A stretch of 64,000 nt of DNA from Thermoproteota archaeon (GCA_037917685.1 JAVCBU010000006.1:32001-96000); one strand, 5' to 3'; counted from the stretch's first letter, positions 21,879 through 37,915 are shown. The notes: generated by a model from the letters alone, not told the origin. Program-made: numbers and translations.

Positions 21879-22628
21879 TTACCTCCTCTCAACTATCGGG
21901 GCCAGATAGTATGTTAGGGTAGCTCCTTCTATCATTGGATAATCTAAGATTAATGGTTTGTCCGTGGCAAATTTTAGCCCGGCTATGTCTGAGGTTTTGC
22001 ACCCCACCATCATTTTTCCAAGTAGAGAAAGTGAGTATATACTTTCAGTTCTTGATTCAACGTTTAGTTCTAGCAGTACAGGGTCACCACGGTTAAAGGT
22101 GTTTGTATAGCTACCTGTTTCTGTCTTAGCTGCTATGGACAGTTTGTCCTCTTCAGCTACAAAGCGAGCCTCGCTAGATACAGAAGAGAGGAACTTGATA
22201 GCATGTTCAAGCTCGGAACTTATCAGTTTTGCATCTGCTGTGAAAACTTCCTTAGGTTCCTGAGGGATTTGTGGTGGGTCTATAGTCGAGAAAGTCATAG
22301 TCCGTGTCGTTACACCCTTAAGGATAAGAGTTATGGAAGACGCATCTTCTGAAATCCGGATTTCAAGCCGATCTCCAGATCTTAGTGCTTTAAATGCCTT
22401 GTCTATATCTTTAAAGTTTAAGCCAACCGTTATTTCCTTCTCACAGTCAAACGTTGAGAAATAGATAGACGGCAAGCTGAACTTTATCATGGCACTTTTA
22501 GTATAGTCTAAAGCCTTGAGTTCCAGTCTTTCAGGGGAGAGTATTAATGGAGCCTCTTCCGTTATCTCAGAAACAGCCTTTATGAGCTTTCTTAACGCTT
22601 CCGCCTCTTCAACTTCAGCTCTAAACAC
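21879..22628 (-). CDS. pcn: DNA sliding clamp PCNA
   Basis: LKALD...AM, VGLNF, DKPL, YYLAP; 249 aa. Confidence 0.93.
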   Translation of the reverse strand: MFRAEVEEAEALRKLIKAVSEITEEAPLILSPERLELKALDYTKSAMIKFSLPSIYFSTFDCEKEITVGLNFKDIDKAFKALRSGDRLEIRISEDASSITLILKGVTTRTMTFSTIDPPQIPQEPKEVFTADAKLISSELEHAIKFLSSVSSEARFVAEEDKLSIAAKTETGSYTNTFNRGDPVLLELNVESRTESIYSLSLLGKMMVGCKTSDIAGLKFATDKPLILDYPMIEGATLTYYLAPIVERR

Positions 22629-22633
22629 TCACA

Positions 22634-22969
22634 TCACCATAGATCTTCTAATCCTCCTAACTTCTCTTCTAATTCTCTAGCTTTCAAATAAATAGTTAAC
22701 TCAAGCCCGTCTAGGTTTACGATTTGCTCTTCTATCAACTCAACATTTGATTCGGAGGCGGTGTTAACAAGGCCTATTACCATTACAGGCTTTTTAACCT
22801 CATACTTCAACGGCTCTTCTGTATACACTCTTGCAACCCCAGTATCATCTTGAACAAGTATGTAATTCACTCCACGGCCTACAACTATTCCAACAATAGT
22901 AACCTTCCGATCAGCCGGGGTAATCTCTGAAATTCTTTTCTCGACGCTAGCAGTGTAATTCCTGCTCAA
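22634..22969 (-). CDS. RPA14/Rpa3-like single OB-fold protein
   Basis: ASVEKRISEI...KVTIVGIV...DDTGVA...VIG...RELEEKL resembles Thermococcales RPA14; probable TTG start overlapping the tfs stop. Confidence 0.7.
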   Translation of the reverse strand: MSRNYTASVEKRISEITPADRKVTIVGIVVGRGVNYILVQDDTGVARVYTEEPLKYEVKKPVMVIGLVNTASESNVELIEEQIVNLDGLELTIYLKARELEEKLGGLEDLW

Positions 22970-23286
22970 GAATACTCCCTCCATGTATAACCGCATTTAA
23001 CACATTTATAGAAGCGTGTTTCAGGCTCATCACCACCTCTAGTTTGCATAAACCAGTAGTAGGCTTCATTATGACCACATTTAGGGCATTCTATGTTTGT
23101 CTTCGGGTAGATTTCAAACTTAACTTGCTCATCTATGATTGTAATCTTATCCTCTTTGTTAATCATCTTAAGTTCGACAAGACTTCCGCCAGGGTTGTCA
23201 GTGACATATCCACAGCTACACTCCCATAGTTTCTTACCTGCCTTTTTAGATGGCGTCATTAAGGCCCCGCATCTTGGACAGAACAA
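22966..23286 (-). CDS. tfs: Transcript cleavage factor TFS
   Basis: Two Zn ribbons, QTRGGDEPETRFYKC with intact acidic hairpin. Confidence 0.95.
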   Translation of the reverse strand: MFCPRCGALMTPSKKAGKKLWECSCGYVTDNPGGSLVELKMINKEDKITIIDEQVKFEIYPKTNIECPKCGHNEAYYWFMQTRGGDEPETRFYKCVKCGYTWREYS

Positions 23287-23357
23287 TTACTCCACCAATT
23301 AATGGCAACGTCCCCTCACCCTTTTATTTTTTACTAGTCTCTAAACATTAGAGCCAA

Positions 23358-23903
23358 TTGAAAAGCGGCATAAAAATATTGGCCATTGACGACTGTAAAA
23401 GTTCAAGGAAAAGGAGAAGGGTGCCAATAGTTGGTGTTATTTTTAGAGGAAGTTTTTTTATAGAGGATGCTCTGAAAGGATGGTTGACGAGAGACGGAAT
23501 GGATGCCACGGAGGCGATTATAAGACTCCACAATTCCTCGTCCCATAGACATCAAATCCAATTAATAATGCTTCATGGTACAGTAATGGCGGGCTTTAAT
23601 ATCGTGGATATGAAGAACCTAAATGAAACATTAGGTAAACCCGTTATAGCTGTAACGGAGAAAAAGCCTGATTTCCAAATGGTTAGTCGCGCCCTTAGAA
23701 ACCTCCCAAACTATACTGAAAGAATAAAGATTGTAGAGAAGAATGGGGAATTTGAGGAGTTTAAAACGATTTATGGCAAAGTTTACGTTAATTATTCTGG
23801 TTTGGACAGTAAGGTTGTACAAAGAACCATCTGGAGCCTATCAAAACACTCTAAGATTCCAGAGCCGCTTAGAGTAGCCCATATATTATCCAGGCTGTTT
23901 TAA
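23358..23903 (+). CDS. DUF99/UPF0215 endonuclease V-like protein
   Basis: ILAIDD, DGMDAT, AGFNIVD, IPEPLRVAH. Confidence 0.85.
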   Translation: MKSGIKILAIDDCKSSRKRRRVPIVGVIFRGSFFIEDALKGWLTRDGMDATEAIIRLHNSSSHRHQIQLIMLHGTVMAGFNIVDMKNLNETLGKPVIAVTEKKPDFQMVSRALRNLPNYTERIKIVEKNGEFEEFKTIYGKVYVNYSGLDSKVVQRTIWSLSKHSKIPEPLRVAHILSRLF

Positions 23904-24167
23904 ATCCTCCTTTAACCTTTCAAACTCGGCTATAAGATCATCTATTCCCCTAATTAGAAGCTTGAGAGGGTTCCCCTCCTTTGCTCTAACTATAAGCTTC
24001 CCCTTCTCATGAAGAGGGTGGGGGACGTCATAGCCAGCTATTTCGACTTCATCATACTCTAAAAGTTTGGTAGAAATAAGGTTTAGAATCGTATGCGTTT
24101 CTCCCTCAACTTCAACCTCCAATAAATCTCCCTCCTTCCTCACGACGGAAACCTTCAATCTAACCAC
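23886..24167 (-). CDS. rpoL: RNA polymerase subunit Rpo11 (L)
   Basis: EGETHTILNL, AGYDVPHPL. Confidence 0.93.
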   Translation of the reverse strand: MVRLKVSVVRKEGDLLEVEVEGETHTILNLISTKLLEYDEVEIAGYDVPHPLHEKGKLIVRAKEGNPLKLLIRGIDDLIAEFERLKEDLKQPG

Positions 24168-25325
24168 CTAGCTAAATTTTCTAACGGTTTTCTTAGAAAG
24201 TATGTAACGGTTACCAGCGCTTCTACTTATTAAACCCTCCGCTATCAACTCTTCTATGTAAGTGTAGGCCTGGGGTATGGGTATCTCCAACTGCATTGCA
24301 ATTTTGTCAAGCTCAAATGGTCCATCTGGATACTTTTCGAAGAGGAAGCGTAGTAGACTTTTATACTCCGCTCCCGCTTTCTCAATGATTTTGGAATACC
24401 ATTCCTTCTCCCTTAAATAGTCCTTTAGAAGCCTTGTATCAACCTGTTTGACCCCTGAAACAGCGGCCATATCGAGAAGCTTGCCGAGCAATCTTAGGAG
24501 ATTCTGCGGTATTCCATCCACATACTTGTTACATTCGAAGATACATTCTTCGGTAAAAGGATAGGTCTTGCTAGGGCTTTTCCTTGTTCTGTATACTGCA
24601 AGCCTTTTAACTATGAGTGAAAGAGCCTCCTGATCATTTAGTGGAGGAATAACTATTTTCTCATGAACTCTAGATATGAGGGCGGGAAATTGTGATTCTA
24701 CTTCTTTATAGGATTCCGGGCTGAAGGTTAGAGCAACAATTATTCCCTCCGGCATTGAGGACACTACCTGCCTTATCATCTCATAGAAGTAAAATGTCCA
24801 ATATTTATCAACAAAGTAGATATTATATACGTCGTCAATAAGCAACGCACAGGGTCTACTGCCCTTCAGATTGCCCAGTATCAGGTCTCCAACCTCAGAG
24901 GGAGTTGATTTTCCGATATGGAACCTCTTTTGATATACCTGGGTGACAGGAATATTTAGAGCTTTAAAGATCTTCGTTTTCATAGACCTAGCCATTGCCA
25001 GAACTCTATTTACAACGGTAGTTATAATCTCCGGACCCGTTGCTACGTTAACGCTTATATATATCGGTAGGCCACCGTATCTTGAGATTTTATCTTGCAA
25101 ATATCTAAGCCGCATGGTCCTACCCGAGCCAGGCGGCCCCACGATATTAATGAAGCTACACCCCTCACCCGTGACTGTTTCCGTGATAAGCGGATCAATA
25201 GGTACGTCACAGGTTTGATGAACAAATAGTTCCGCAGCTGTTGAGGGATCCAGGATTATTTCAGATGTAAACGGGTTCCCTCTTAAGCCGAAGAGCTTTA
25301 TGTAAGTTGATGGAAACACCGACAT
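24168..25325 (-). CDS. AAA+ ATPase (ExeA/Cdc6-like) with C-terminal winged helix
   Basis: FGLRGNPF N-terminus, variant Walker A GPPGSGRT, Walker B LLIDD, SR finger, YPFT..GIP lid, C-terminal wHTH. Confidence 0.65.
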   Translation of the reverse strand: MSVFPSTYIKLFGLRGNPFTSEIILDPSTAAELFVHQTCDVPIDPLITETVTGEGCSFINIVGPPGSGRTMRLRYLQDKISRYGGLPIYISVNVATGPEIITTVVNRVLAMARSMKTKIFKALNIPVTQVYQKRFHIGKSTPSEVGDLILGNLKGSRPCALLIDDVYNIYFVDKYWTFYFYEMIRQVVSSMPEGIIVALTFSPESYKEVESQFPALISRVHEKIVIPPLNDQEALSLIVKRLAVYRTRKSPSKTYPFTEECIFECNKYVDGIPQNLLRLLGKLLDMAAVSGVKQVDTRLLKDYLREKEWYSKIIEKAGAEYKSLLRFLFEKYPDGPFELDKIAMQLEIPIPQAYTYIEELIAEGLISRSAGNRYILSKKTVRKFS

Positions 25326-25393: not shown

Positions 25394-27526
25394 ATGCTGT
25401 CTCACTCAAAATTAGAAAACGTAGTTAAACTTGCATTCAAGGTTGAAAAGATAAGAAATGTAGGTATAATCGCTCATGTAGACCATGGAAAAACCACTCT
25501 AACCGATAGACTCCTTGAGGGCTCAGGCATTATTTCTGAGAAGACGGCGGGAGAGACGTTATTACTGGACTATGAGGATGTTGAAAAGGAGAGGAGAATG
25601 ACTGTAAAAGCTGCCGTAGCAACGATCCCATGCAGATTTAACCGGGAAGACTTTATCCTAAATCTTGTAGACACACCTGGCCATATTGATTTCAGCGGGC
25701 ACGTTGCCAGATCGATGCGGGCCATCGACGGCGCTATCTGCGTGGTAGACGCTGTTGAAGGAGTAATGGCGCAAACCCAACTAGTTACAATGCAAGCTTT
25801 AAAGGAGATAGTGAAACCGGTTCTCTTCATAAACAAAGTAGACAGGCTGATAAGAGAACTTAGACTTGAACTGGAAGATATAAAGGAGAGGATTGAGAGA
25901 ATAATAGAATCATATAACGCGATACTTGAGAGATACTCTAAAAAAACTCCTCTATTCAACTGGAGAGTTTCGTTCGAGAATGGAAGTGTAGCCATTGGTT
26001 CCGCACTACACGGATGGGCAATAACTGTCGAAAACCTCAAAAACGGGGTAAAATTCAAAGATATTGTTTCCAGTTATAAAGAGAACCAAGTAGAACAGCT
26101 GAAAAAGGAGATCCCAGTACATGAAGCCATCTGGAACATGATTTTAAAGCACATCCCCAACCCAAGGGATGCTCAGGCTTTAAGGATCCCATATATATGG
26201 CATGGAAACATAGAATCGCCGCTTGGCCGGGCATTAAAGTCGTGTTCACCTATGGGGGCTGTGGTTGCTAATGTGATCAACGCAACGCTTGACGAGAGAG
26301 GTAAAGTACTATACTACATTAGAGTGTTTTCTGGAGAGTTAAGATCTGGCAGTGAGCTTCACGCAGTTAACCGAAATGTTAACCTGAGGATAGGCCGTCT
26401 ATCTGTTGTCATAGGTAATAGACTTTACAGTGTTAGAGAGCTCCCTGCTGGAAACATTGCCGCTGTAACCATATCTAATGGTGTTAAAGTAGGTGAAACT
26501 TTGACTAGTGAATTTAAAGACTCCGTCCAACCATTTGAGGAATTTCCCTACCTTGCTGAGCCTGTAGTAGCCGTGTCTGTTGAACCTGAGAGAATGAAGG
26601 ATATACCTAGACTTGAAGGGCTTTTAAGCCAGATAGCTTCGGTTGAGCCAGGAATATGGTATAGAATAGACGAGGAGACGGGACAAGTAGTACTCGCAGG
26701 AACTGGAGAGTTACAATTAGAGATAGCGGCGTGGAGGCTAAGAGAAAGTGGGGTAGAGGTTGTGTTTGAAGAGCCGGAGGTTGTTTATAAGGAAGCCCTA
26801 AGGCATGATTTAACTATAGAAGTTGAAAGCCCAAATGGGGCTAATAAGTTTAAATTCAGGCTCCACCGTGTAGGGAATATTAAGATAACTCATGGTGAGG
26901 TTTCAAGAAGCATTAGGAAAATCTATAGAACCCCGGCTAATGTTTGGTTTATCGATAACACAAATATGAACTACATCGCAAATATACTGGTCGATAATAA
27001 GGTCTTAGAAGCTGAAAGGAGAGGTATAATTGAGGGACTAAAATCCGCATTGCGAAACGGTTACATGATAAGAGGACAAGTGAGAGGATGCGGGATCATA
27101 GTCGTCGAGGCGAATCTATCCCCTAATCCAAAATTACGGGGTTACCAGCAGATGTTCCTAGCAGCATATTCCTGCATTCAGAAGGCTGGAGAAAGATCAG
27201 CTCTAACAGTTGTAGAGCCATTATACTCGGCGGAAATAATGGTTGATTATGGTTTGGAAAGTGTAGTGGTCTCTTATCTTAAAAGACGAGGTTTCAGACT
27301 GGACCAAACCTTCGACACCGGATTCTTTAAAGTAATAAGAGGCGTTATTCCTGTAGCTGAAACCTTGCACCTCACAAGAGAGCTTAGAAGCATCACAGGT
27401 GGTAGAGTACTGTACCAGACCAGTTTTGCAGGTTGGAGAGAAGTTGAGGACAAACTGTTAAGAAAGTTAGTTACAAGAATAAGGGAGGAGAAGGGACTTC
27501 CCCCTCTAAACATGAAGTCCGAATAG
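25394..27526 (+). CDS. Elongation factor 2 paralog (aEF-2p-like GTPase)
   Basis: AHVDHGKTT, DTPGHIDF, NKVD, GSA, EPVV..VEP, GTGELQLE; the diphthamide HRG motif reads LRG. Confidence 0.85.
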   Translation: MLSHSKLENVVKLAFKVEKIRNVGIIAHVDHGKTTLTDRLLEGSGIISEKTAGETLLLDYEDVEKERRMTVKAAVATIPCRFNREDFILNLVDTPGHIDFSGHVARSMRAIDGAICVVDAVEGVMAQTQLVTMQALKEIVKPVLFINKVDRLIRELRLELEDIKERIERIIESYNAILERYSKKTPLFNWRVSFENGSVAIGSALHGWAITVENLKNGVKFKDIVSSYKENQVEQLKKEIPVHEAIWNMILKHIPNPRDAQALRIPYIWHGNIESPLGRALKSCSPMGAVVANVINATLDERGKVLYYIRVFSGELRSGSELHAVNRNVNLRIGRLSVVIGNRLYSVRELPAGNIAAVTISNGVKVGETLTSEFKDSVQPFEEFPYLAEPVVAVSVEPERMKDIPRLEGLLSQIASVEPGIWYRIDEETGQVVLAGTGELQLEIAAWRLRESGVEVVFEEPEVVYKEALRHDLTIEVESPNGANKFKFRLHRVGNIKITHGEVSRSIRKIYRTPANVWFIDNTNMNYIANILVDNKVLEAERRGIIEGLKSALRNGYMIRGQVRGCGIIVVEANLSPNPKLRGYQQMFLAAYSCIQKAGERSALTVVEPLYSAEIMVDYGLESVVVSYLKRRGFRLDQTFDTGFFKVIRGVIPVAETLHLTRELRSITGGRVLYQTSFAGWREVEDKLLRKLVTRIREEKGLPPLNMKSE

Positions 27527-27537
27527 GGTGTCCTGCG

Positions 27538-28278
27538 ATGGATGTTAGGGTTGTACTCGTAGAGCCAGAAAATCCAAGTAATACAGGAATGATTGCAAGA
27601 GCCATGAAAAATTTTGGATATACAGATTTATACCTTGTCAATCCAAAGTTCGATATCTCAGAGTCTAGAAGAATGGCTGTAAAAGCACAGGATGTATTAG
27701 ATAACGCTAAAATCGTGGACGACATAGGAGAAGCTTTGGTAGATGCTTCCTTAGTAGTCGGAACAACATCCAAGGTTGGCGGCATAAGAAATGTTAGAAG
27801 AAGAGTAGTGTCACTTAGAAGTTTTATTGAAAATTATAAATGGAAGGGAAAGGTGGCAATCCTATTTGGGAGGGAGTCTATAGGCCTCACAAACAAGGAG
27901 TTGGAACTCTGCGATGTTATCGTAAATATTCCAACCAGCGAAGAATACCCTTGCCTTAACATTGCAAATTCTGTTTCAATAGTTCTCTATGAATGTTACA
28001 CTAGGGGTTTAAGGAGGATATTGATCGAACCAGTAAGCAGGGAAACGTTAAAACTTCTTGAATATTATGTAAAATCTATATGCTACTCTATAGGTTTGCC
28101 TAGTTTTAAGACGGAAAGGGTAATAAAAGTTTTAAGAAATGTAATAGGTAGATGTTTTCCGAAGTGTATAGGTGAGTCTGAAGCTAGGTATCTTATGATG
28201 GTTGCACGCAAGGTTGCACTTAAATTAGGAGTTGATGTATATGCCATTAAGGGAAGCCAGGTGTTACAGGAGGGTTAA
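27538..28278 (+). CDS. trmJ: TrmJ/LasT-family SPOUT RNA methyltransferase
   Basis: VVLVEP..PSNTGMIARAMKNFG, FGRESIGLTN.EL, YPCLNIA. Confidence 0.88.
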   Translation: MDVRVVLVEPENPSNTGMIARAMKNFGYTDLYLVNPKFDISESRRMAVKAQDVLDNAKIVDDIGEALVDASLVVGTTSKVGGIRNVRRRVVSLRSFIENYKWKGKVAILFGRESIGLTNKELELCDVIVNIPTSEEYPCLNIANSVSIVLYECYTRGLRRILIEPVSRETLKLLEYYVKSICYSIGLPSFKTERVIKVLRNVIGRCFPKCIGESEARYLMMVARKVALKLGVDVYAIKGSQVLQEG

Positions 28279-28741
28279 AAGACCATATACCAGAAAGGAA
28301 TATATTAAATCCATACCCCCATCCAAGATTCGAAAGTACGAATTTGGCAACAAGAAAGGTGAATATGACTACGTATATAGAATCATTACAGAGGCGCCTT
28401 TTCAGCTTAGAAGCAACGCTATTGAAGCATTTAGGCTGGGACTACTTGGCCAGTTGAGAAATTTATCAAAAGAAAACTATTTTGTGATAATACATGCGCA
28501 CCCTCACCATATACTACGCAGGCATGCTATGGCTAGTGGACACAAGGCGGAAAGATTGCAGAAGGGGATGAGACTAGCCTTCGGAAAGCCCGACGGGAGA
28601 GCCGCCCAGCTCGACAAAGGCAGCAGAATAGCTTCCATCATGGGCTACTCCAGGGACGAGGAAGCGATAAAGAACGCTATTAGAGTAGCAGCGTCTAAAC
28701 TACCTCCATACATTAGGATCGTCAGAGAGAATCTTAAATAG
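28232..28741 (+). CDS. rpl10e: 50S ribosomal protein uL16 (L10e)
   Basis: RCYR...PYTRKEY, NAIEAFR, GMRLAFGKP.GRAA, ASKLP. Confidence 0.94.
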   Translation: MMYMPLREARCYRRVKRPYTRKEYIKSIPPSKIRKYEFGNKKGEYDYVYRIITEAPFQLRSNAIEAFRLGLLGQLRNLSKENYFVIIHAHPHHILRRHAMASGHKAERLQKGMRLAFGKPDGRAAQLDKGSRIASIMGYSRDEEAIKNAIRVAASKLPPYIRIVRENLK

Positions 28742-28753
28742 GCGAACAAATAG

Positions 28754-29335
28754 ATGAGTAAACCCCTACAAAAGAATAACATGAAAATGGAGATAGTATA
28801 TCCCGGCAAGCATATAGGCATTGTTGAAGAGGGAACTCCAGGTAAAAATACCTACGAAGTTAATGGAAACATATATTCCTCTGTTATTGGCAGATTAAAC
28901 TATGACAGAGATAACCGAGAGTTTCGAGTTCACCCCTTTAAAGAACTGAACTACGTGTCAACAGGGTATGTTATCGTGGGAACAGTATCTGCAACTGGTT
29001 TAAGTTCAGCTCAAGTTGAGATAGAAGCAATATATAGGCCAAAGACAAGAATCCTTGGAAAACCACTCGAGGGTTACATATTTAAGCGTAAAGAAAGTAG
29101 CTGGATGTTCTCCGTGGCAGATGTAATACTCGCTAAGGTATTAAGAATAGTATTCGGACGCATCCACCTCACTATAAACGAGCCCGAACTCGGAGTGATC
29201 TATTCTAAATGCCCTGAATGTGCTATGCCCTTAAAGCGAGTTGGAAACACCCTTGTATGCGGGGAATGCGAGAAAGTTATAGTGAATAAAAAGCTATCTC
29301 CATTTTACAGTAAACTGTCGATTACCCAGAAGTAG
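28754..29335 (+). CDS. csl4: Exosome subunit Csl4
   Basis: VYPG..IG..EE..PG.NTY, S1 domain, ELGVIYSKCPEC...CGEC Zn ribbon. Confidence 0.85.
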   Translation: MSKPLQKNNMKMEIVYPGKHIGIVEEGTPGKNTYEVNGNIYSSVIGRLNYDRDNREFRVHPFKELNYVSTGYVIVGTVSATGLSSAQVEIEAIYRPKTRILGKPLEGYIFKRKESSWMFSVADVILAKVLRIVFGRIHLTINEPELGVIYSKCPECAMPLKRVGNTLVCGECEKVIVNKKLSPFYSKLSITQK

Positions 29336-36227: not shown

Positions 36228-36831
36228 TCGTAAGACGATACGTCTATTTATCACTGCCATGGTGACATCTGTAGGTATAAGCTTGCTTTTTCAACTAATC
36301 TTCCTATATTTGTTCATCGAACAAGTTTATGCAGAAATAGGAGGAGGCTATTTCGGGTATCAAGGGGTTGAAATAATGGGACTAATCGGCTATTCAAGGA
36401 TAAAACTTGCATTGCTAGCACTATGTCCGTTTTCTTTAAACAGGATAAGATTAGCGTTTTACATTCCTGGACAGCATCTCGGGAGCGTTGAAATAGAGGG
36501 TGCCGGGAAGTATAGTGTTTTTTATCCTTTCTTCGTGTTTTTAGGGACTATAGCCTATCTTCGTTCCCTTGAAAAGCATGGAGCATTTAGCAAAGTCTAC
36601 ATGGCATTTTCTTCTCTGTTGGTATCGCTTCTAACACTATTCTTGCAAATCTTTCTATCAGCAATTCCTTTTCTGGTATCTACAACATACGGTTTGGTTA
36701 CTATGAGTGTGGAGCTTAATTTCTCAAACTTACCTTTAAGTATTTCAATAACTTTGGGGAGTAGTTCTATAGCATACATAGTTTGGAATAGGGGTTTAAT
36801 TGGGGCTAACATGGGAGGATCTCAGCATTAA
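36205..36831 (+). CDS. Hypothetical multi-pass membrane protein
   Basis: Four or more hydrophobic segments; overlaps both neighbours. Confidence 0.55.
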   Translation: MMMLYKFNRKTIRLFITAMVTSVGISLLFQLIFLYLFIEQVYAEIGGGYFGYQGVEIMGLIGYSRIKLALLALCPFSLNRIRLAFYIPGQHLGSVEIEGAGKYSVFYPFFVFLGTIAYLRSLEKHGAFSKVYMAFSSLLVSLLTLFLQIFLSAIPFLVSTTYGLVTMSVELNFSNLPLSISITLGSSSIAYIVWNRGLIGANMGGSQH

Positions 36832-37915
36832 AGGCCACGTACATGGCGAACTAGTGATAGTAGAAGCAGGAGAGGAAGAGAAAGGCATGTTATACAGGCG
36901 TGGGTGGGGATTCAAGGCTCCTGACGGCCAGCTATTTCTACCTCTGGTGTCAGCAGCTTATCTGTCAGAAAATGATAAACTTGAAGTATACGAGGAAGAT
37001 AGGAAACTTACTGTATCTGAAATAATGAGTTTAGCGGCTAAAATAAACCCCACAGATATCTTGCGATATTTTGTACTCAAGGATCTAAGATCTAAGGGCA
37101 GGATTGTGAAGGTTGAGCCGAAGACACCATTCATGAGATTGTATCCAAGGGGGGCAGAAGTCGGACTCGAGACAGCTAGAATACTTGTATACTCTGTGTC
37201 AGAAGATGAACCGTTAAAACAAGGAGAACTCGTAAAAATAATTAGATACGCAGCTAGAACTAGGAAAACTCTCTTACTAGCCGTAATAGATGATGAAATG
37301 AACATTAGCTATTATACCGCAGAGCAATTCCAGCCTGAACAGATTAGGGAAGTACAACTCCCTAGAAATAAGGCTGTTGCTGAACTGATACATGACAGAA
37401 TAATAATATGGAATGGAGAATTAGCTGACGAATTCTATAAGAATGGTTTTTGGGGTCATCCTATAGGTGTCAGAAAGCCTAAAGTCACAGAAAAATATGG
37501 AAAACCGCTCCAACTCTCCCTCCTTGAAGGAATATATCTTGCCGAGAAGGGATGCATAGAAGTGATCGATGTCGAGAGCGGAGAGAAAATCACCCCAGAA
37601 AGCCTTATTAAACCGCTAGGCAAGATGAGAAGAAAGGCTTTGGTTAAGCTTTCTGTCTATAGATTTTGGAGAGATAAAGGATACATTGTTAAACCAGCAT
37701 CAAAGTATGGTGTAGACTTTATGTTTTACAAGTATGGCCCGGGCATAGACCATGCCCCCTACATGTGCTTCACATCTAGCCCCGACGAGGAAATCCTGCC
37801 AGTCGAACTCATAAGAGCAGGGAGAATAGCTACGACAGTCAGAAAAACACTGGTTGTAAGTGTAAAAGAGAATAATCATATATTTCACTACCGTGTAAAG
37901 TGGTACAAGCCATAG
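36800..37915 (+). CDS. endA: tRNA splicing endonuclease, fused two-unit (alpha2) type
   Basis: Two EndA units; C-terminal unit has catalytic Y-H-K (KYGVDF.FY..GPGIDHAPY...VRK). Confidence 0.92.
   Translation: MGLTWEDLSIKGHVHGELVIVEAGEEEKGMLYRRGWGFKAPDGQLFLPLVSAAYLSENDKLEVYEEDRKLTVSEIMSLAAKINPTDILRYFVLKDLRSKGRIVKVEPKTPFMRLYPRGAEVGLETARILVYSVSEDEPLKQGELVKIIRYAARTRKTLLLAVIDDEMNISYYTAEQFQPEQIREVQLPRNKAVAELIHDRIIIWNGELADEFYKNGFWGHPIGVRKPKVTEKYGKPLQLSLLEGIYLAEKGCIEVIDVESGEKITPESLIKPLGKMRRKALVKLSVYRFWRDKGYIVKPASKYGVDFMFYKYGPGIDHAPYMCFTSSPDEEILPVELIRAGRIATTVRKTLVVSVKENNHIFHYRVKWYKP

Follow-up and report, generated by a model that had tools for sequence, protein, structure and literature searches.

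A 64,000-nucleotide stretch of DNA from a Thermoproteota archaeon (GCA_037917685.1, JAVCBU010000006.1:32001-96000), here called the window, carries on its plus strand, at positions 25394..27526, an open reading frame for a GTPase of the elongation factor 2 (EF-2) family with 710 residues, a five-domain fold, and no diphthamide histidine. Judged by its sequence, the protein is a Korarchaeal aEF-2p, an archaeal EF-2 paralog of the gene class already described by Narrowe et al. in 2018 (Genome Biol Evol 10:2380, PMC6143161). The gene is followed on the same strand by trmJ, which encodes a SpoU-type RNA 2'-O-methyltransferase (27538..28278; TIGR00050, 189 bits against a cut-off of 167), by the gene for ribosomal protein uL16, or L10e (28232..28741, with a likely start at the ATG at 28241; NF003239, 180 bits against 91), and by csl4, encoding an exosome cap subunit (28754..29335; NF034126, 130 bits against 90). 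The spacing is tight, with 11 nt between aEF-2p and trmJ, an overlap between the end of trmJ and uL16, and 12 nt between uL16 and csl4. A first reading of the sequence (the original prediction) had noted this co-orientation, which is confirmed here with the family scores of the three downstream genes above their cut-offs, and had taken the gene for a candidate EFL1-like GTPase serving maturation of the large ribosomal subunit.

The window belongs to genome G000 (1.81 Mb, 22 contigs, 95% complete), which was placed in a class sample of 40 genomes. From the deposited names of relatives, this class appears to be the Korarchaeia. It is divided here into three families: f1, the window genus (G000 and G001); f2, with 36 genomes; and f3, with G038 and G039.

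The GTPase motifs G1-G4 are intact in the alignment, each on the plus strand: the P-loop G1 (AHVDHGKT, residues 27-34; 25472..25495), G2 in switch I with its Thr retained (RRMT, residues 67-70; 25592..25603), G3 including the catalytic His (DTPGH, residues 93-97; 25670..25684), and G4 (NKVD; 25832-25843). The tip of domain IV has been remodelled. The diphthamide loop IHEDPAHRGPAQ is replaced by LSPNPKLRGYQQ (residues 575-586; 27116..27151, plus strand, from translation and alignment), at exactly the position at which the original prediction had placed it, and the second domain IV loop, as defined by Narrowe et al. (PMC6143161), reads SPNGAN instead of SPNKHN, with both the Lys and the His gone (26828..26845, plus strand, by alignment). 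Compared with canonical EF-2, two 8-residue stretches of domain IV are deleted and the C-terminal tail is missing. The loss of the tip, the SPNGAN loop, the domain IV deletions, and the lost tail are diagnostic. The RRMT motif had also been listed as a departure from EF-2; it is present but is not diagnostic, since ordinary single-copy EF-2 may have G, Q, E or M after the Arg and keeps the Thr, as in the RQMT of Thermofilum, Thermoproteales and the Korarchaeal genome G027 and the REMT of Caldisphaera.

Family profiles separate the protein from canonical translocases. It matches the NCBIfam aEF-2 model TIGR00490 from end to end, with 535.8 bits, below the cut-off of 738.45; Pfam recovers an EF-Tu-type G domain, EF-G domains II and III, and EFG_C (domain V), and EFG_IV is undetected. 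Identity to the EF-2 of G004 across domains G, II, III, IV and V is 53, 31, 42, 25 and 29% for the window protein versus 62, 51, 60, 47 and 33% for a canonical pair, and among the domains of aEF-2p, domain IV has changed most. An AlphaFold model from a 42-row alignment reaches a mean predicted local distance difference test score (pLDDT) of 84.7 and template modelling (TM) scores of 0.82-0.85 to solved archaeal EF-2, and EFL1 is not among its first 50 fold matches. In a phmmer search of the PDB, aEF-2 scores 484 bits, eEF2 254-284, EF-G about 192, EFL1 184 (G domain only), and Snu114 181. Both lines of comparison indicate a derivative of archaeal EF-2 and not a member of the EFL1 family, and the EFL1-like identity proposed originally is not upheld.

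The gene is under strong constraint. Between G000 and G001, the ratio of nonsynonymous to synonymous substitution rates (dN/dS) is 0.069 for aEF-2p overall and 0.048 in domain IV, next to 0.037 for uL16, 0.048 for csl4 and 0.11 for trmJ, all of them rough figures because dS is near saturation. A pseudogene was ruled out by these ratios. The remodelled tip is identical in the three aligned sequences of this lineage (G000, G001 and P0005), and since domain IV has a dN/dS of about 0.05 as well, it is not noise.

Close relatives are few. Among 5.8 billion proteins, a single relative cluster (82%) stands near the window protein, and the next matches are ordinary Thermoproteota EF-2 at no more than 40%. 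A profile search of 1.84 billion representatives returned 54 top sequences of 560-800 aa, 38 of which lack H-x-D-x-x-H by alignment reading. The tips of these histidine-less relatives are mutually unrelated; some are named Asgard aEF-2p, and no common tip motif was found between Korarchaeal and Asgard aEF-2p. When contigs were scanned with six aligned Asgard aEF-2p and filtered by P-loop and DTPGH patterns, the 80 loci kept were mostly bacterial EF-G and included no Asgard aEF-2p. Metagenome contig scans gave no matches with P0254 and one 6-kb contig with P0407.

The canonical EF-2, whose whereabouts the original prediction had set as a check, lies elsewhere in the same genome, so the window gene is not its sole EF-2; a sole EF-2 would have refuted the original prediction, which on this point is borne out. 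This second EF-2-family gene is located on contig C14 (G000:C14:87882-90033, minus strand; locus L001 1426-3670, L031), is matched with 589.6 + 36.9 bits across two reading frames split by a putative mini-intron, and has relatives in G038 (L027) and G039 (L029). It retains both histidines in an HTG loop with an R>T change (HVDPAHTGY); the homologous loops read LSPNPKLRGY in the window copy versus VHVDPAHTGY in the C14 copy. The identity of its exon 2 is 59-65% to Odin-, Baldr-, Thor-, Heimdall- and Promethearchaeota aEF-2 versus about 40% to TACK EF-2, Korarchaeal ones included, and in a 40-row tree it is nested in the Asgard aEF-2 clade with a Shimodaira-Hasegawa-like approximate likelihood ratio (SH-aLRT) support of 100. 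Copies of this type occupy unrelated neighbourhoods in f1 and f3. A search for Dph2 (PF01866) and Dph5 (TIGR00522) detected neither in five genomes (G000, G001, G004, G038, G039) and was positive in all four archaeal control genomes.

This configuration corresponds to the one reported for the 'Kor 1/3' Korarchaeota, which Narrowe et al. (PMC6143161) describe as dph-less and as carrying an aEF-2/aEF-2p pair. In their account, the Kor 1/3 aEF-2 carries R702>T and falls among Asgard aEF-2, the aEF-2p lacks the tip motifs, with GTP hydrolysis probable and translocation unlikely, and aEF-2p is confined to dph-less genomes in their survey. The same combination is found here: an additional gene of the EF-2 family where dph2 and dph5 are missing, G1-G4 kept while the HxDxxHRG and SPHKHN loops are lost, and a paired HTG-type aEF-2 that has the R702>T change and clusters with its Asgard counterparts. 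Both copies have f3 relatives in the databases under the name Candidatus Korarchaeota, the f3 aEF-2p being labelled only as 'hypothetical protein'.

The locus itself proved to be the inherited EF-2 locus of the class. The sole EF-2 of G006, G027 and the single-contig genome G004 (99% complete) reads IHEDPAHRGPAQ and has an AAA ATPase divergently upstream and trmJ downstream; uL16, csl4 and rpoL then follow in G004 and G027, and likewise in G001, G038 and G039. The aEF-2p of the latter three genomes is thereby flanked by neighbours matching those of canonical EF-2 in G004, G006 and G027. In the window, the AAA ATPase with its C-terminal winged helix-turn-helix domain occupies the same divergent position (24168..25325, minus strand), as it also does upstream of EF-2 in G004, G027 and G040, and rpoL (23886..24167, minus strand), part of the conserved csl4-rpoL neighbourhood, lies here on the opposite side, in a rearranged order. 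A comparison of match coordinates for EF-2 and uL16 covered the 39 class genomes with both genes: in 33 of them, uL16 follows EF-2 downstream at a distance of 0.7-1.6 kb and on the same strand, and 29 of these 33 are single-copy canonical f2 genomes. The remaining six have the two genes on separate contigs, and neither was found in G028 (70% complete). In f2, an extra CDP-alcohol transferase gene separates EF-2 from trmJ. Outside the class, the linkage was missing in the one relative examined (G040), and the one Odin-type aEF-2p locus fetched had none of the trmJ, uL16 and csl4 neighbours. Two matches in G036, considered as a possible paralog, turned out to be two fragments of canonical f2-type EF-2, each on its own contig and sharing 70-80% identity with f2.

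Because the linkage is common to relatives whose only EF-2 is canonical, it is older than the divergence of the paralog, and neighbours shared in this way tell of the gene's origin and not of its present function. The link to uL16 had been read as a sign of function; its conservation in the class is confirmed, and the functional argument drawn from it falls, as the canonical single EF-2 has the same linkage. The distance from an S12-S7 context, likewise offered as unusual, is real but not diagnostic, being the normal EF-2 locus for the whole class.

The neighbourhood also varies in smaller ways. A small MTS/PrmA-like methyltransferase gene lies between uL16 and csl4 in f3 (L026 11338-11988, G038); an unannotated gap of about 580 nt occupies this place in f2, and the window genus has only 12 nt (28741-28754). 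Window positions 21879-25325, upstream of EF-2, hold PCNA, a TFS/RpoM-like zinc-ribbon protein, an Endo_dU-family (PF01949) gene and rpoL, and the same PCNA-to-rpoL gene set is found downstream of csl4 in f3, which points to an inversion around the EF-2 locus.

Most probably, the window gene is the EF-2 native to this lineage, passed on vertically and remaining at its ancestral address, which would have consisted of the AAA ATPase on one side and of EF-2, trmJ, uL16 and csl4 in this order on the other. We infer both the sequence of events and the loss of translocase activity as follows: an Asgard-type aEF-2 with an HTG loop, now the intron-bearing gene on contig C14, would have entered the lineage and taken over translocation, and the resident gene would have stayed in place and then lost its decoding-centre contacts, separately in f1 and f3. 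The aEF-2p of f1 and f3 are 37% identical to each other and 39% identical to single-copy Korarchaeal EF-2, and in domain IV the two paralogs share 16% identity and have different deletions. As their mutual identity is no higher than that to canonical EF-2, the values fit separate decay of one resident gene. As a whole, a demoted resident EF-2, displaced by an Asgard-type aEF-2 and persisting as the Korarchaeal aEF-2p, is the best explanation and a somewhat probable one.

Several results weigh against it. The approximately unbiased (AU) test keeps both the union of aEF-2p with single-copy Korarchaeal EF-2 (p 0.14) and that of aEF-2p with the Asgard-type clade (p 0.31), and when the f3 rows are left out, the window protein is placed with the long branches of Asgard aEF-2p (SH-aLRT 82/91). 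The coded kinship of the families places f1 nearer the single-copy f2 than f3, and the scenario therefore needs either a loss in f2 or two transfers. The quick trees, built without eukaryotic rows, join long branches and were flagged for possible attraction. Since both AU constraints survive and the long branches join, the reading of the origin rests on synteny and not on the tree. The same data allow a different account, in which aEF-2p was never resident and either arrived paired with the Asgard-type aEF-2 and replaced the resident EF-2 in place, or arose as a duplicate within the lineage. The AU-tolerated union with the Asgard-type clade and the position beside Asgard aEF-2p without f3 agree with it, as do the identical aEF-2/aEF-2p pairing in Asgard genomes and the RRMT common to f1 and f3 aEF-2p; but it presupposes an exact exchange in situ between genes about 40% identical, either twice or in a common ancestor, and f2 would have to revert to a canonical gene. 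Its supporting branches are the long ones already flagged, and it is the Asgard-type copy that changes neighbourhoods while aEF-2p stays put. We consider a non-resident origin rather unlikely.

In the eukaryotic system on which the original functional proposal was modelled, EFL1 acts on eIF6, the counterpart of archaeal aIF6, and this substrate is missing from the window genus. aIF6 is absent from G000 and G001 by PF01912 and TIGR00323; tblastn with three Korarchaeal aIF6 queries recovered the flanking genes and no aIF6; and an aIF6 hidden Markov model (HMM) run over 21,385 open frames in all six frames gave a best E-value of 0.035. This weak match, at the end of contig C22, proved to be a phosphate acetyl/butyryl transferase. 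The deletion site is evident from gene order. Relatives have a cluster of Rpr2-like, S19e, a small protein, L39e, L31e, aIF6, prefoldin and FtsY, with names assigned by recognisable sequence and position rather than by family search, and in G000 the stop of L31e (C1:423694) abuts the start of prefoldin (423693), an arrangement repeated in G001 (G000:C1:423229-424133, L122; G001, L123). aIF6 is present in 36 of the 40 class genomes and in 22 of the 23 high-quality ones, G000 being the sole high-quality genome without it and the other misses 63-83% complete. The f3 genomes encode both aEF-2p and aIF6. aIF6 has thus been cleanly deleted in the window genus while aEF-2p remains under selection, and the eviction of aIF6, the task first suggested for this GTPase, cannot be its task here. 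Among the papers searched, none pairs aIF6 with Korarchaeota.

SBDS, the partner of EFL1, is retained. Its gene adjoins those for proteasome-alpha and Rrp4 in G000 (G000:C6:148414-149091, minus strand; L118 1093-1773), and SBDS was found in 37 of the 40 class genomes. A complex of aEF-2p with SBDS, predicted from a 42-row aEF-2p alignment mixed with canonical EF-2 rows and a 20-row SBDS alignment, scored 0.73 against 0.00 for the best of three controls and passed a mark that 58 of 80 solved complexes attain, as do 2 of 110 mismatched pairs; contact agreement between runs was at least 97%, and partner pLDDT at least 82. The predicted interface involves domain III, the domain IV helix 543-555, and tip residues 583-592 of aEF-2p, and residues 96-130 and 206-224 of SBDS (domains II-III). 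For comparison, domains 2-3 of eukaryotic SBDS are reported to make the first contact with EFL1 (PMC6321010), and EFL1 on the 60S is reported to interact mainly with SBDS and eIF6 (PMC6710477). As a separate observation, the C-terminal tail of SBDS in the window genus (its last ~13 residues) is unlike that of the other 19 aligned Korarchaeal SBDS, and it falls in the predicted interface.

With G1-G4 and an EF-2 fold in place, aEF-2p should remain able to bind the ribosome at its factor site and to hydrolyse GTP, and with both tip loops rewritten and domain IV partly deleted, it should no longer drive tRNA-mRNA translocation. The likeliest present job would be a non-translocating GTPase step on the large subunit with SBDS, other than aIF6 eviction, which we put forward tentatively and at less than an even chance. 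Candidate acts would be the repositioning or release of SBDS, or the test-driving of the GTPase centre; which GTPase removes SBDS from the archaeal 50S is left unsettled by Lo Gullo et al. (PMC8024482). Several points count against such a role. The complex score may reflect memory of solved EFL1-SBDS-60S structures, the controls covered neither the translocase copy nor canonical EF-2, so that the score does not imply specificity of binding to aEF-2p, conservation is no higher in the SBDS interface residues than elsewhere (0.41 versus 0.43), and in S. solfataricus the release of aIF6 by aEF-2 is reported to need no SBDS and to be inhibited by it (PMC8024482). A broader scenario, in which Korarchaeia, independently of eukaryotes, split EF-2 into a translocase and a GTPase that proofreads the large subunit, with an SBDS-partnered resident EF-2 docking on the 50S via its rewritten domain IV, aIF6 made dispensable by this in the window genus, and an imported translocase gene whose transcript the tRNA endonuclease must splice ahead of translation, is speculative, and we regard it as doubtful.

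Other functions have been weighed against the same evidence. Had the operon reflected an EFL1-like module, in which the GTPase and SBDS evict aIF6 from the nascent 50S after uL16 loading, the proposal could draw on the eukaryotic EF-2 paralogs that took on an aIF6-type role, on S. solfataricus EF-2, which itself releases aIF6 (PMC8024482) and makes a division of labour between two copies plausible, on the SBDS gene with its passing complex prediction, and on f3, with both aEF-2p and aIF6. It is nevertheless very unlikely: no aIF6 was detected in G000 and G001 by profiles, tblastn or the six-frame HMM, with L31e abutting prefoldin, the gene order is common to canonical single EF-2, the Odin-type aEF-2p locus lacks these neighbours (1/1), and the protein is not EFL1 by sequence or fold rank. 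What survives of the suggested 50S role is the presence of SBDS and the predicted complex, without the aIF6 mechanism. Narrowe et al. proposed instead an elongation-cycle helper, a back-translocase or fidelity factor offsetting the missing diphthamide, and the restriction of aEF-2p to dph-less genomes in their survey (PMC6143161), the lack of dph2 and dph5 here too, and the retained GTPase core and factor-site domains all speak for it. Yet the 36 f2 genomes of the same class show no second EF-2, G004, the sole f2 genome searched for dph, is without dph2 and dph5, and aEF-2p tips differ wholly between lineages, which is hard to fit to one shared decoding-centre contact; a helper of this kind seems unlikely to us. 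That the protein is still a working translocase, for instance a condition-specific alternative EF-2, would suit its intact GTPase, full five-domain fold, strong purifying selection and ancestral housekeeping locus. Both decoding-centre tip loops are nevertheless replaced, the histidine and the loop-2 lysine are lost, two 8-residue pieces of domain IV and the C-terminal tail are missing, and Narrowe et al. judge such proteins to be unlikely translocases (PMC6143161), leaving this the least probable of the functions considered, at a very low level.

Set beside known systems, the locus extends the description of Narrowe et al. (PMC6143161), whose main text makes no mention of synteny, gene neighbourhood or operon and has 'intron' in the reference list only. 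Added here are an aEF-2p in the EF-2 locus of single-copy relatives, a genus without aIF6, and an intron in the partner gene. The aEF-2 of S. solfataricus (Lo Gullo et al. 2021, PMC8024482) shares the fold and the factor-binding site and represents the ancestral state, whose two jobs could be split over two copies; it differs in that it translocates and needs no SBDS, whereas the window protein has lost the tip and its genome aIF6. In the tree of Narrowe et al., the eEF2/EFL1/Snu114 trio is sister to Heimdall LC3 aEF-2, apart from aEF-2p (PMC6143161). EFL1/Ria1 is likewise an EF-2-derived GTPase without the diphthamide site, and binding via SBDS domains II-III is predicted here as well; in contrast to EFL1 with its ~1100 residues, the window protein has 710 and no domain II insertion, 5anb_K matches in the G domain only (184 bits), and the substrate aIF6 is missing. 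The window protein is at most an independent analogue of EFL1 and not an orthologue. Bacterial and organellar EF-G paralogs, such as EF-G2 and mtEF-G2 with their split tasks, similarly keep the GTPase and the docking on the ribosome, with a domain IV tip that has diverged and a task other than translocation. They belong to another domain of life, and the window protein shows no sign of a protection or recycling role; Tet-type ribosome protection is cited in the discussion of Narrowe et al. (PMC6143161). Among the fold matches, PDB entry 9ou7 is given as a Methanosarcina 50S-dimer structure that contains aEF-2. Archaeal EF-2 would accordingly be able to occupy idle large subunits, which could serve as a lead for a hibernation-type role of aEF-2p.

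The partner gene on C14 has a feature of its own. Its reading frame ends with ...LLLTD at a TAA between the P-loop and switch I and restarts 22 nt on in another frame. The same site is interrupted in G038 (30 nt) and G039 (31 nt), in frame with a TAA in the former and out of frame in the latter, as the lengths predict. Pairing of the flanks gives an outer helix of 9-11 bp and a 4-bp helix (CGAC/GTCG), each strand having a 3-nt bulge, and the inner hairpin varies in sequence and length yet stays paired, with compensatory changes across the three genomes. Minimum free energy folds show both 3-nt bulges in G000 and place the 3' bulge slightly differently in G038 and G039; compared with shuffled sequences, the bulge-helix-bulge (BHB) fold has z-scores of -5.6 to -6.9. 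A cut between bulge residues 2 and 3 would yield a protein of 740-744 aa and build the conserved Tyr codon of a D-Y-D/E motif. A pseudogene or an assembly error was rejected on account of the recurrence at one site in three genomes, with varied lengths, matching frames and compensatory stems. The window also encodes the splicing endonuclease EndA (36800..37915, plus strand; one 371-aa open reading frame with two tRNA_int_endo nuclease-type domains), which is expected to cut this putative intron, and RtcB is encoded besides EndA. From the DNA, then, two 3-nt bulges, a 4-bp helix, a restored frame and the enzymes are all present. The closest database relatives of the C14 EF-2 have 614-703 aa, whereas nearly all listed Asgard homologues have 723-768 aa and the few shorter ones are mostly marked partial or lie on 2-7-kb contigs; such short relatives are expected if gene callers stop at the intron.

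The crenarchaeal cbf5 intron (Yokobori et al. 2009, PMC2738675) is reported with the same architecture of helix, 3-nt bulge, 4-bp helix, 3-nt bulge and helix in a protein gene, and with a cut between bulge residues 2 and 3 that restores the frame; here the host is an Asgard-type EF-2 gene of Korarchaeia, the site lies between G1 and G2, and the length is only 22-31 nt. Among the papers searched, none brings BHB, pre-mRNA, archaea and elongation factor 2 together. The mini-intron is of consequence for annotation in that gene callers cut this EF-2 short or break it up; if it is real, the C14 EF-2 would also be an unusual example of an essential mRNA spliced in the manner of a tRNA.

The earlier functional inference rests on a linkage that predates the divergence of the paralog and on a substrate that is missing in the genus. 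What aEF-2p does has been an unsettled matter since 2018, and three points make it easier to test. The history of the locus suggests that the Korarchaeal 'paralog' came first and that the 'canonical' copy is the newcomer, and the question becomes which task is left to an EF-2 relieved of translocation. The predicted interface, formed by the aEF-2p tip 583-592 and helix 543-555 against SBDS domains II-III, would be open to mutation. Unlike any model organism, a genus with aEF-2p and SBDS but without aIF6 separates the question of SBDS from that of aIF6. A selected resident EF-2 that is predicted to hold SBDS through its rewritten tip, in a natural aIF6-less background, would be worth a bench test, and if the reading of aIF6 as dispensable is true, this genus would be a natural aIF6 knockout.

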